Origin: Roseburia sp.
GTDB taxonomy: Bacteria > Bacillota > Clostridia > Lachnospirales > Lachnospiraceae
DNA length: 64,000 nucleotides
Assembly: GCA_023664685.1 (NCBI GenBank)
Contig: JAMPFC010000004.1
Coordinates: forward strand, 1,233-65,232
Reading direction: 5' to 3'
Below, piece by piece: positions 16,775-31,900 of the stretch (its first letter is position 1; each line of letters opens with the position of its first letter). The translations under genes and the position numbers were made by a program. Below the pieces are notes generated by a model, which did no database searches, was not told the DNA's origin, and saw only the letters and a list, made by a program, of their open reading frames with translations.

Positions 16775-18289
16775 TTACCATTCCGCACAAATTGTACCTA
16801 CATCATAATTGCTTACTTCAGGCACATTAATTGTTGTGTAAGATATGATTTCATTCCCCTGCTCGTCCTCTGACTGCAACAAAACATAATAATCCCCCGG
16901 AGTTACTAATACTTCAAATGTCATATCATCATTTATAAGGTTATACTCATCATATTCTTCCGATGTCGGCCAAGCTAATCTCCTCAGGTAAATACTTATA
17001 TATGAACCATCCGAACGCTCCTGTCCACTTACTGAAACTTCTGTAATATTTCCTGTGACACATACATACTCCTGTTCGCCTGTCTCTTCTAATTCAGATA
17101 CATCCTCCAGATATACGCCTTCCTCTGAAAATAAGTCTCCTATCATCATATATAACCCCACTGCCAAATAATAAACAACTGCACTAACCAAAAAAGCAAA
17201 CATACATCTGGACCACCATTTGGCGCAAATAATTTTCCACATCCTTATTTTGTCTGGCTTTTTACTTTTCATATTCCTTGCCTGAAAGGCATCCTGCCCA
17301 AACGCCGCTACTGTCCGCTCTTCTTTGTATGTGTCTTCCTTGATTACATCATTTGATGTACTTTCCGCAAAATCTGACATCGTGTCATTTACTAACAAAT
17401 TCAACTCCTTCTTCATTTCGGCCGCAGAGTTAAAGCGTTCAGAAGCGTTAAAAGCACATGCCTTTTGTATGATCTGAAATAATTTTTTATTTACTCCGGC
17501 AATCTCCGGTACTGCTTCTCCTGATAAACGCTTTTGCATTGCCTTTTCAGTATCATCATATCGGAGCGGCTGTGGAACGGATGGCATAAATGGGAACCGT
17601 CCTTTATTTAAGAGACGGTACAACATAATACCCAACGAATAAATATCTACTGTATTTCCATATACCTCCCCACGGTAAATTTCCGGTGCCATATACATAT
17701 TAGTTCCCTTTTGAGACATTGCAGAAACAGTCTTTTCCAGTTGCCTAGCAATACCAAAGTCTCCTAATTTATATGTCCCAAATGCATTAATAAAAACATT
17801 GTCAACCTTAACATCCCGATGAATAATATGTCTCTTCTCGCAGCTTTCCAACGCACTACAAATGTCAATGCCCAACTGCACTACATCTTTTTCCGCCATT
17901 GCATGATGCTCCAGATAGCTACTCAGGTTTTGTAATAACTCCATCCGAATTAAGATCGTCCACCCAAATCCATCACTTTTTTCCACTACCTCGTAGTCTT
18001 CAATCGCAACAATACTATCTGCCGTTTTTAAAGATTCCATCACCTTGATTTCACTCATCAGGTTCTTAACCAAATCTTTGTAATATGTATGGATTGAGGA
18101 ATGATCCATTCCGGAAGTCATGAGATTTCTTACCTCCGATATTTCTTGAGGAATTTGAATCACCTTCACCGCTGCATACGACACATAGCCCATTTTTTCT
18201 CTGCACACTTTATATACTTTTCCAAAAGAACCAGTACCCAACAACTCCTCTACTGACCATTCCGGCCAAATTTTATTGATTATATCCAT
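16775..18289 (-). CDS. Membrane Hanks-type Ser/Thr kinase K2 (kinase domain, one TM, ~120-aa C-terminal ectodomain); last gene of the T7SS array
   Basis: Kinase motifs: GTGSFGKVYK, AAVKVI, HRDVKVDNVF, LGDFGIA, MYMAPE. TM: CMFAFLVSAVVYYLAVGLYMMIG. The N-terminal ~300 aa are clearly paralogous to K1 (19855..22152). The start lies 1 nt after the PP2C stop. Confidence 0.85.
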   Translation of the reverse strand: MDIINKIWPEWSVEELLGTGSFGKVYKVCREKMGYVSYAAVKVIQIPQEISEVRNLMTSGMDHSSIHTYYKDLVKNLMSEIKVMESLKTADSIVAIEDYEVVEKSDGFGWTILIRMELLQNLSSYLEHHAMAEKDVVQLGIDICSALESCEKRHIIHRDVKVDNVFINAFGTYKLGDFGIARQLEKTVSAMSQKGTNMYMAPEIYRGEVYGNTVDIYSLGIMLYRLLNKGRFPFMPSVPQPLRYDDTEKAMQKRLSGEAVPEIAGVNKKLFQIIQKACAFNASERFNSAAEMKKELNLLVNDTMSDFAESTSNDVIKEDTYKEERTVAAFGQDAFQARNMKSKKPDKIRMWKIICAKWWSRCMFAFLVSAVVYYLAVGLYMMIGDLFSEEGVYLEDVSELEETGEQEYVCVTGNITEVSVSGQERSDGSYISIYLRRLAWPTSEEYDEYNLINDDMTFEVLVTPGDYYVLLQSEDEQGNEIISYTTINVPEVSNYDVGTICAEW

Positions 18290-18290
18290 T

Positions 18291-19118
18291 TTACATTACC
18301 TCACATAATATAATAGTTGTATTGTCCTTTGCCCCTCGTTCCAATACTGTGCATAAAAGTAAATTAAGCTTTTCTGAAATCGTACATTTTTGAATTAAAA
18401 TTTGCTCAATTTCCTCATCTGTCATCATATCTGTGAGACCGTCGCTGCAGAGCAGATATTGGTCTCCGCTTTTAAGGTTTACTTCTCGTATATATGGCTC
18501 AATAAGAAATTCTTTTGCATTGATACCTAAAAACTGCGTAAGTGCCGGTTTCCGATCAATGCCCTGCTGCTTTAATAGTTCTGCATCTGTATGTGCCTGT
18601 GAAATGAGGTTCATTTCTCCATTTCGCACTTGGTACATTGGACTGTCCCCCAGATCAGCAAGTATCCCTTTGTTTCCTTTCATAAAGAAAACGGTTGCCG
18701 TTGAACCAATTAATCCATAATGTTCTTCTTTTGCTGTTTGGAACACCGTATTACTTACATCTGTCAACATCTGTGTAATCTGTTCTTCATCTGGCATTTC
18801 CTGCTTTTTCACTAATTTTTTACAGCATTTTTGAAATTCACGTGCCGATGTAAAAGACGCCAAATCTCCGGCGTTTTCTCCCCCCATTCCATCAAAAACA
18901 GCAACTGCCTGTAAACATCTCGTTTTATATCTCCATTCTTTTAATTTCTTTTCCCGATCATGCATACGCGGCAGAATGCAGCCCTTGTAATATAAATTAT
19001 CTTCGTTTCGTTCCCGCACTTTACCTAGATGACTGACACATACTGCGTCAATCCATACTTCCCCCTCTACTGCTCCAAATAACTGCTTCTTTAATTGATT
19101 CCATTTGTCTTTTCGCAT
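18291..19118 (-). CDS. PP2C-family Ser/Thr protein phosphatase
   Basis: 275 aa with RERNEDN, AVFDGMGGENAGDLAS and LLCSDGLTDMM...GAKDNTT metal-binding motifs. Confidence 0.85.
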   Translation of the reverse strand: MRKDKWNQLKKQLFGAVEGEVWIDAVCVSHLGKVRERNEDNLYYKGCILPRMHDREKKLKEWRYKTRCLQAVAVFDGMGGENAGDLASFTSAREFQKCCKKLVKKQEMPDEEQITQMLTDVSNTVFQTAKEEHYGLIGSTATVFFMKGNKGILADLGDSPMYQVRNGEMNLISQAHTDAELLKQQGIDRKPALTQFLGINAKEFLIEPYIREVNLKSGDQYLLCSDGLTDMMTDEEIEQILIQKCTISEKLNLLLCTVLERGAKDNTTIILCEVM

Positions 19119-31820: not shown

Positions 31821-31876
31821 ATCTGCTCTCCTCATCAATAATGCTTCTAATTTTTATATTTTACCACCTTGTGTTT

Positions 31877-31900
31877 CAAAAACTTTTCCGTTTTTTTCAC
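31877..31900 (-). promoter_or_regulatory. Copy D of the conserved island promoter motif (upstream of essC)
   Basis: + strand CAAAAACTTTTCCGTTTTTTTCAC; coding strand GTGAAAAAAACGGAAAAGTTTTTG. It lies 20 nt upstream of the extended -10 TGgTAAAAT (hexamer at 31858..31863). Confidence 0.6.

Follow-up and report, generated by a model that had tools for sequence, protein, structure and literature searches.

Genetic organization of the locus

The DNA analysed here is a 64-kb window (64,000 nucleotides [nt]) of Roseburia sp. contig JAMPFC010000004.1, which carries on its minus strand a type VII secretion system (T7SS) locus. All genome-level searches covered this window, whose open reading frames (ORFs) were profiled with Pfam and NCBIfam. 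Sixteen consecutive ORFs, running from essC to the kinase gene K2, occupy positions 16775 to 31838, with spacings of −13 to +83 nt and a Shine-Dalgarno-like sequence before most starts. A preliminary description of this DNA had reported a 16-gene minus-strand array whose largest gaps were 83 and 81 nt, and both values were reproduced exactly. The same account had placed EssC, a YukD-like protein, four WxG proteins, a WXG100/LXG-like effector and a DUF4176 protein in the array, and all of them were recovered by Pfam and NCBIfam matches together with motif reading.

Judged from its gene content, the locus is a genuine and complete T7SS cluster, associated with kinases and a phosphatase and of a non-T7SSb kind. 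Three modules can be distinguished. The predicted secretion core comprises EssC, with an FHA domain that would be phosphothreonine-competent by motif, the YukD-like protein and EsxA-like WXG100 proteins. The effector module consists of an EspG-like chaperone, small helical partners, a polymorphic effector and the DUF4176 protein, and the signalling cassette is formed by kinase K1, a PsbP-like lipoprotein, a PP2C phosphatase and kinase K2. A gene for a CHAP hydrolase follows.

EssC and the secretion core

The product of essC (TsxC; 27270 to 31838) showed the characteristics of a membrane EssC/EccC-type ATPase, with matches to FtsK_SpoIIIE (E = 1.3e-58) and Pfam FHA (E = 2.6e-18), and it reached 1195 bits against the NCBIfam T7_EssCb_Firm equivalog TIGR03928 (cut-off, 778). 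After two N-terminal FHA domains come a membrane region rich in Ala and Gly and then ATPase domains of the FtsK type; no other array protein gave an FHA match. In canonical FHA domains the tip is the phosphothreonine-binding face. The second domain (FHA2) is canonical, containing G109-R110, S124..H127 and N146-G147 (numbering of the 1516-amino-acid [aa] protein from the ATG at 31820), and its GR, SxxH and NG positions were kept in 97 to 100% of a set of 120 EssC homologues with ≥50% identity. The corresponding conservation in T7SSb EssC is 0, 0 and 21%, respectively, and the same motifs are conserved at ∼100% in the kinase-associated TsdC, TseC and TsjC (Table S1 of PMC11217815).

Overlapping the essC stop by 13 nt is an ORF for a 117-aa soluble helical protein (26929 to 27282) with no family match and no transmembrane segment, which has orthologues at the same position in two related loci (L055 and L060) and weaker ones in L003 to L005. 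The next gene (26672 to 26932) encodes the YukD/EsaB-like ubiquitin-fold protein (TsxB), identified as such by its Pfam YukD match (E = 2.3e-9, 38.3 bits versus a cut-off of 27), and yukD adjoins essC in related loci too. It is followed by the gene for an 84-aa WXG100-like protein with a WSG motif (26413 to 26667; WXG100 E = 7.4e-5, under the gathering score), an order kept in L001 to L005, L055 and L060. The EsxA-like protein (TsxA; 26032 to 26331), with a WKG motif, was assigned to the T7SS WXG100 proteins by a score of 54.7 bits versus a cut-off of 27.3 (E = 1.2e-14) and by 56 bits against TIGR03930. It is the best-conserved small protein of the locus, with orthologues at E values of 1e-41 to 1e-55. 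A WxG motif was thus present in all four small proteins (WSG, WKG, WQG and WEG), three of which scored above the WXG100 gathering score.

A consensus terminator scan of the array gave no convincing hit, in line with the earlier proposal of one operon free of terminators. That proposal has nevertheless to be qualified, as a strong RNA hairpin (25971 to 26023, minus strand) occupies the 83-nt gap directly 3′ of the esxA-like gene. Its folding energy is −31.1 kcal/mol (z = −4.7), none of 200 shuffled sequences folded as well, and it has no U-tract. Hairpins follow the esxA-like gene in L060, L055, L002 and L057 as well, the position being kept and the sequence not; the hairpin of L057, with its U-run, is a canonical terminator. 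The element probably acts in partial termination or in mRNA stabilisation, and it probably raises the level of the essC-to-esxA transcript or stabilises that transcript. A single operon with differential 3′ ends is plausible.

The effector module

Beyond the hairpin lies the gene for a 95-aa WXG100 protein with a WQG motif (25661 to 25948; E = 3e-9), followed by that of a soluble 219-aa protein (24998 to 25657; 213 aa in the database gene call, which starts at 25639). The latter matched no sequence family in Pfam or NCBIfam, and its likeness to EspG is one of fold alone. Its AlphaFold2 model had a predicted local distance difference test score (pLDDT) of 84.8 and a pTM of 0.82, and the top 17 PDB matches to this model were all mycobacterial EspG1, EspG3 or EspG5 structures (E down to 3.3e-7, TM ∼0.64). 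By its modelled fold, the protein is predicted to be an EspG-like chaperone (TsxG-like).

Two small proteins come next. The first, a 103-aa helical protein (24674 to 24985) with weak matches only, to WXG100, LXG and TIGR04197, keeps its position in related loci and is likely a Lap-type targeting partner of the effector. The second, a 98-aa WXG100 protein with a WEG motif (24359 to 24655; E = 1.7e-12), is likely another effector partner. A soluble 167-aa protein is encoded upstream of the effector (23834 to 24337); it had no family above threshold in Pfam or NCBIfam, and orthologues were found in L002, L004, L007, L010, L055, L057 and L060.

The 436-aa protein encoded at 22506 to 23816 matched WXG100 over residues 4 to 87 (E = 6.4e-7). 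Residues 1 to ∼95 alone aligned with its counterparts in seven related loci, and the C terminus is variable, with a Gly/Ala-rich hydrophobic stretch. Since only the first ∼95 residues are conserved, we interpret it as a polymorphic effector whose conserved part is an N-terminal WXG100/LXG-like domain for targeting. The module ends with the DUF4176 gene (22180 to 22509; Pfam E = 4.8e-24), a member of a family of chaperones that stabilise cognate LXG toxins (PMC12482557).

The signalling cassette

K1 (TsxD-like; 19855 to 22152) and K2 (16775 to 18289) are membrane Hanks Ser/Thr kinases with Pkinase matches of 142 and 141 bits (cut-off, 31.7; E = 1.9e-41 and 4.7e-41, respectively). K1 has its kinase domain in residues 1 to 300, a single transmembrane segment at residues 418 to 436 and an ectodomain of 329 aa; K2 has a single transmembrane segment at residues 365 to 383 and an ectodomain of 121 aa. 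Their kinase domains are 55% identical over 336 aa, and their ectodomains are unrelated. The Gly-loop, the A-x-K lysine and the HRD..N, DFG and APE motifs are intact in both and in 13 related kinases. Transmembrane prediction and motif alignment thus agree with the topology (kinase fold, single membrane span, ectodomain) and the full set of catalytic motifs initially read from the sequence, and K1 and K2 are predicted to be active Hanks kinases.

The K2 start lies 1 nt past the stop of the gene for a cytoplasmic Ser/Thr phosphatase of the PP2C/PPM type (TsxF-like; 18291 to 19118). This protein matched Pfam PP2C (49.3 bits versus a cut-off of 20.3, E = 6.8e-13) and PP2C_2 (E = 2.1e-11), and its sequence contains the motifs RERNED, DGMGG, SDGL and DNTT, as expected of a PP2C domain with its metal-binding Asp motifs. 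Against the NCBIfam Stp1/IreP model it scored 133 bits (E = 1.1e-38), under the equivalog cut-off of 230.

Between K1 and the phosphatase gene lies that of a lipoprotein (19132 to 19830) with the lipobox LLAGC. Its domain at residues 62 to 232 was modelled with AlphaFold2 (pLDDT ∼78) in a PsbP/LpqN/DcrB-like fold, and in Foldseek the model matched PsbP (E = 1.4e-5) and LpqN (E = 5.5e-4). Wherever the lipoprotein gene was found, it sits between K1 and PP2C. Searches of 5.8 billion proteins and of 1.84 billion representatives yielded only 4 and 14 homologues, respectively, figures that rule it out as a conserved general component and weaken its earlier inclusion in the signalling set. By its distribution, it appears to be a lineage-specific accessory confined to close relatives.

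The possibility that the lipoprotein is homologous to the ectodomain of K1 was considered and not retained: a FPDGWEV strand is common to both, and the BLASTP (E = 6e-4) and hhalign (62% and 27%) values are suggestive only. Separately, a 638-aa protein of the representative library (P0144) joins a K1-type kinase (∼87% identity in the kinase domain) to a PsbP-like lipoprotein domain (53%). The topology of this protein is doubtful, with two adjacent hydrophobic segments, and it may be the product of a deletion or a gene-calling artefact; if real, the fusion would tie K1 to the lipoprotein functionally.

The CHAP gene (14987 to 16651, minus strand) encodes a secreted protein with CHAP (E = 1e-8), GBS_Bsp-like and fn3 domains and a signal-peptide-like N terminus. 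It begins 123 nt after K2 in the window and 30 nt after K2 in L060, and it lies immediately 5′ of essC in L055 and L056. It is probably the 17th member of the locus, and its product is a candidate cell-wall hydrolase aiding secretion. A CHAP hydrolase at such a locus recalls S. aureus EssH.

Membrane proteins of the array

Within the array, only EssC, K1 and K2 are integral membrane proteins, the lipoprotein being anchored by its lipid alone, and transmembrane prediction bore out the preliminary description on this point. Models of YukC/EssB, EssA and EsaA gave no match at E ≤ 0.1 among the 16 array ORFs (Pfam and NCBIfam) and none at E ≤ 0.001 among the other window ORFs of ≥110 aa, so that the absence of these three components, noted at the outset, holds for the window. 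The unassigned small ORFs (117, 219, 103 and 167 aa) cannot be EssA, EssB or EsaA, because none has a transmembrane segment, and gaps of ≤83 nt leave no space for a hidden small membrane gene. No EsaA-like polytopic ORF was present in the array, and neither profile searches nor transmembrane prediction revealed a TsxH-, TsxI-, TsxJ- or TsxK-like gene there.

This membrane complement bears on the possibility that K1 and/or K2 are obligate core scaffold subunits that replace EssB around EssC, with catalysis added. Both kinases have the topology of EssB, they and EssC are the sole integral membrane proteins, and the EssA, EssB, EsaA and TsxH/I/J/K-like genes were not found in the array. In addition, YukC of T7SSb contacts FHA2 at its tip, and FHA2 here keeps the phosphothreonine-binding residues of that tip. 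The kinase TscD is, moreover, listed as a core component of T7SSc (PMC11217815). Neither K1 nor K2, however, matched the YukC/EssB model at E ≤ 0.1.

Conservation of the locus in other genomes

At least 120 full-length EssC homologues with ≥50% identity were found, mostly in gut and rumen metagenomes; the closest named relatives are metagenome-assembled genomes (MAGs), at 53% identity. One genome per species was scanned for relatives, and the window proteins were compared with the ORFs of each locus. Within the close EssC clade (39 to 82% identity), K-type kinases and PP2C were present in every locus with enough flanking DNA. This clade spans two phyla, with members in the Bacillota and in the Atopobiaceae. 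It includes Ruminococcus MAGs (L002 and L009), a Clostridia MAG (L003), Saccharofermentans (L004), a Clostridiales MAG (L005), a Lachnospiraceae MAG (L010) and the actinobacterial Olsenella sp. kh2p3 and Tractidigestivibacter scatoligenes (L007 and L008), which have three tandem kinases each. Synteny of the kinase and PP2C genes with this type of essC, on which the initial interpretation depended, was therefore seen in all loci of the close clade with enough flanking DNA.

The arrangement itself is variable. Of two further members of the clade, L060 is collinear with the window, and L057 has the order kinase, OmpA-domain protein, PP2C, essC. Depending on the relative, the kinase/PP2C cassette is found downstream or upstream of essC, and the kinases vary in copy number (1 to 3) and in their ectodomains. 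In L059, EssC is only 32% identical to that of the window, and its gene has immediately downstream of it a K1-lipoprotein-PP2C-K2 cassette that is 67 to 73% identical (55% for the lipoprotein itself). The cassette thus accompanies essC without being bound to one EssC lineage.

Some of these loci have further features. In L059, positions 3068 to 20711 hold small helical genes and yukD, the divergent essC and then K1, lipoprotein, PP2C and K2; further downstream are genes for a Sel1 protein, a VWA protein that recalls TscE of T7SSc, a PP2C_2 protein of 576 aa and one more kinase. The three tandem K-type kinases of L007 and L008 (19015 to 24558) follow PP2C, and one of those in L007 has about eight hydrophobic segments by a crude hydropathy scan. 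Directly upstream of essC in L005, a rumen MAG, there are genes (6467 to 9958) for a separate 372-aa FHA protein and for an additional kinase with an ectodomain that matches families of solute-binding proteins. The latter shows that sensor domains are swapped freely within the close clade. A more distant EssC group (∼30 to 37% identity; L024 and L047) has a giant immunoglobulin (Ig)-like protein with a C-terminal transmembrane segment, a TPR kinase and small transmembrane FHA proteins, a layout that matches that published for T7SSe/j.

The variation among relatives weighs on the scaffold possibility. Kinase count, ectodomains and position relative to essC are all variable, and the cassette is equally conserved beside the 32%-identical EssC, unlike what would be expected from tight structural co-evolution. 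On balance, a scaffold role in place of EssB seems rather doubtful to us, although it would be compatible with a phosphorylation switch. The conservation of the cassette beside the L059 EssC and the variable kinase number and ectodomains argue instead for a modular switch and against a co-evolving structural subunit.

These comparisons also bear on whether the locus could be an ordinary T7SSb whose EssA, EssB and EsaA are encoded elsewhere in the genome, the kinases being unrelated neighbours. EssC does pass the T7_EssCb_Firm equivalog, and the window is 64 kb of the genome. In characterised T7SSb loci, however, the EssA, EssB and EsaA genes adjoin essC, and here they were not found in the window; nor were they seen in the related loci among profile-scanned ORFs and precomputed Pfam annotations, most flanking ORFs there having been compared with the window proteins only, a comparison unable to reveal these three components. 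Furthermore, the kinase/PP2C synteny is kept across phyla and the FHA residues are unlike the T7SSb pattern. We consider an ordinary T7SSb of this sort very improbable.

Comparison with described secretion systems

Garrett, Higginson and Palmer (Microlife 2024, PMC11217815) defined T7SSc to T7SSj by genome analysis, none of them with EssA, EssB or EsaA. In several of these subtypes a single-pass membrane Ser/Thr kinase (TsxD) is accompanied by a PPM phosphatase (TsxF) and by FHA proteins; TscD has, according to the authors, an EssB-like topology and a conserved active site, and phosphothreonine/FHA regulation was proposed for T7SSc, -d, -e and -j by analogy with the type VI secretion system (T6SS) (PMC11217815). 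The novelty first attributed to an EssB-less T7SS with active kinases was thus overstated, such variants having already been described (PMC11217815). No experimental work on T7SSc to T7SSj or on T7SS kinases of gut Clostridia was found in the literature searched. The set of components present here, namely A, B, an FHA-bearing C, two copies of D, F and an EspG-like G plus the CHAP protein, corresponds exactly to none of the eight published subtypes.

The locus resembles T7SSd, -e and -j in its single-pass kinase TsxD with an ectodomain, its WXG100 proteins and its effectors with LXG-like N termini, and it shares with T7SSe and T7SSj the PPM/PP2C phosphatase TsxF and the YukD-like TsxB. Two features characteristic of T7SSe/j, an FHA-bearing TsxC with GR, SxxH and NG and a membrane kinase TsxD together with a phosphatase TsxF, were also found. 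Its EssC is 30 to 39% identical to those of e/j-like and Olsenella loci. In contrast to T7SSd/e/j, the array lacks the giant Ig-like TsxI, the small single-transmembrane proteins TsxH and TsxK and the stand-alone FHA protein TsxJ (DUF6382 plus FHA), and it adds the EspG-like chaperone, two paralogous kinases, the lipoprotein and the CHAP hydrolase. The Olsenella-family relatives of the clade have YukD and PP2C, whereas the published T7SSd lacks both. A Big_2 protein (4055 to 7285) was rejected as a TsxI candidate; it has a signal peptide but no C-terminal transmembrane segment, its gene is 10 kb distant, and the related loci contain no counterpart.

With T7SSc (Bacillus anthracis, Paenibacillus and Brevibacillus) the locus shares nearly its whole set of components, namely WXG100 (A), YukD-like (B), EssC (C), a membrane kinase whose active site is intact (D), PPM (F) and EspG-like (G) proteins, and neither system has a kind of integral membrane protein other than EssC and the kinase. 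TscC, however, has no FHA domain, whereas the EssC described here has one with intact phosphothreonine motifs, and the von Willebrand factor A (vWA) protein TscE has no counterpart in the array, where no VWA match was obtained. The likeness to T7SSb (S. aureus Ess and B. subtilis Yuk) lies in the TIGR03928 EssC, YukD/EsaB, the EsxA-type WXG100 protein, DUF4176 and an LXG-like effector with small helical partners. The differences are the lack of EssA, EssB/YukC and EsaA/YueB from the array, the presence of PP2C and of kinases with intact motifs, and an EssC FHA domain that keeps the phosphothreonine-binding residues missing from T7SSb EssC.

Genomic surroundings

Immediately 5′ of essC (32066 to 34819, minus strand), a hybrid histidine kinase with HisKA, HATPase, receiver and Hpt domains is encoded together with a single-domain response regulator, a pair that could regulate the locus; two-component genes also precede essC in L012, L014 and L015. 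This pair is one of the points in favour of an indirect action of the cassette, on transcription of the locus or on envelope homeostasis, as with IreK for the Enterococcus faecalis T7SS, and with no phosphothreonine-FHA contact. Kinase-dependent transcriptional activation of T7SSb appears in work cited by Garrett et al. (PMC11217815), and the kinases lie several kilobases from essC in some relatives. Indirect control would nevertheless leave unexplained both the near-invariant phosphothreonine-binding residues of EssC, lost in kinase-free T7SSb, and the physical attachment of the cassette to essC, which is seen in two phyla and with two EssC lineages. We therefore regard it as unlikely.

About 3 kb past the CHAP gene (11804 to 13552, minus strand) lies the gene for a third Ser/Thr kinase, with a Cys-rich zinc-ribbon-like N terminus, one transmembrane segment and two PASTA domains; no PP2C gene adjoins it. 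Near the T7SS locus (7377 to 11746, minus strand) there are also a 478-aa protein without a family match and BspA-type leucine-rich repeat proteins. Homologues of these (E = 1e-104 and 3e-46) are encoded in L055 (1 to 8063), where the CHAP gene and essC come immediately after them, which suggests a larger conserved neighbourhood. Genes for AAA_14/DUF4143 ATPases occur at 2649 to 3863 (minus strand), 13698 to 14972 (plus strand) and 34851 to 36059 (minus strand); two of them are 58% identical, and two flank a stretch that includes the T7SS array together with the CHAP and two-component genes. A horizontally acquired island is unconvincing, the difference in GC content being small (39.5% in the array versus 41.5% in the window). 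The chromosomal origin region, with rnpA followed by dnaA, dnaN, recF, gyrB and gyrA, was recognised at 52000 to 56000, with a sign change of the GC skew at ∼54 kb. From the origin to the T7SS locus the distance is 20 to 35 kb, and the locus is co-oriented with replication.

A proposed phosphorylation switch on EssC

From the observed domain content, motif conservation and synteny, we infer a phosphorylation event, its target and an effect on secretion. The mechanism that we favour, with moderate confidence, is a reversible threonine-phosphorylation switch read by the FHA domain of EssC. K1 and K2 would sense something extracellular via their differing ectodomains, and in the lineage of the window the lipoprotein may modulate K1. 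The kinases would then phosphorylate a threonine on themselves or on a component of the machine, EssC FHA2 would bind the phosphothreonine and so promote assembly or firing, and PP2C would reset the switch. The preliminary description had given the kinases, PP2C and the lipoprotein a joint role in linking an extracellular signal to secretion. The near-invariance of the phosphothreonine-binding positions in the FHA domain of EssC fits that proposal, and the part given to the lipoprotein is weakened. The occurrence elsewhere in the window of a separate, housekeeping-type PASTA kinase is counted in favour of the switch.

By analogy, such a scheme would parallel the PpkA/PppA/Fha pathway of type VI secretion. 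In that pathway PpkA, PppA and Fha1 act with accessory envelope proteins, TagR and TagQ, which include a lipoprotein. Both schemes comprise a Hanks kinase that spans the membrane and bears an ectodomain, a PP2C, an FHA reader on or at the machine and a lipoprotein. The two secretion machines are unrelated, however. The one described here belongs to a Gram-positive bacterium and carries its FHA domain on the motor ATPase itself, and its accessory proteins have no homology to those of the T6SS.

Several observations weigh against the switch. No kinase was found within the readable 10 kb of L055, whose EssC is 67% identical and where an RHS toxin follows the effector region. The lipoprotein is restricted to its lineage, and a strong hairpin follows the esxA-like gene within the presumed operon. 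A juxtamembrane RT-x-AAF sequence, considered as a conserved phosphorylation site, was common to K1, K2 and L057 and not to the wider family, and it was discarded.

A bolder version of the switch would be a minimal T7SS with two kinds of integral membrane protein, in which an active, autophosphorylated kinase docks through a phosphothreonine on the FHA2 tip of EssC, at the YukC/EssB site, as scaffold and switch at once, EssB being a catalytically dead descendant of such a kinase. We put this forward as a speculation that is more probably wrong than right.

For the post-translational control of T7SS firing, the lineage described here offers a compact test case, with an EssC that has intact phosphothreonine motifs, one or two kinases, one phosphatase and no confounding membrane parts. 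It is common in gut and rumen Clostridia and is found also in the Atopobiaceae. The locus shows, in addition, that the published T7SSc to T7SSj catalogue does not yet cover uncultured gut taxa completely. If phosphorylation gates assembly in these systems, the threonine-phosphorylation logic of type VI secretion would extend to type VII, and this may explain why T7SSb has retained an FHA-bound pseudokinase.

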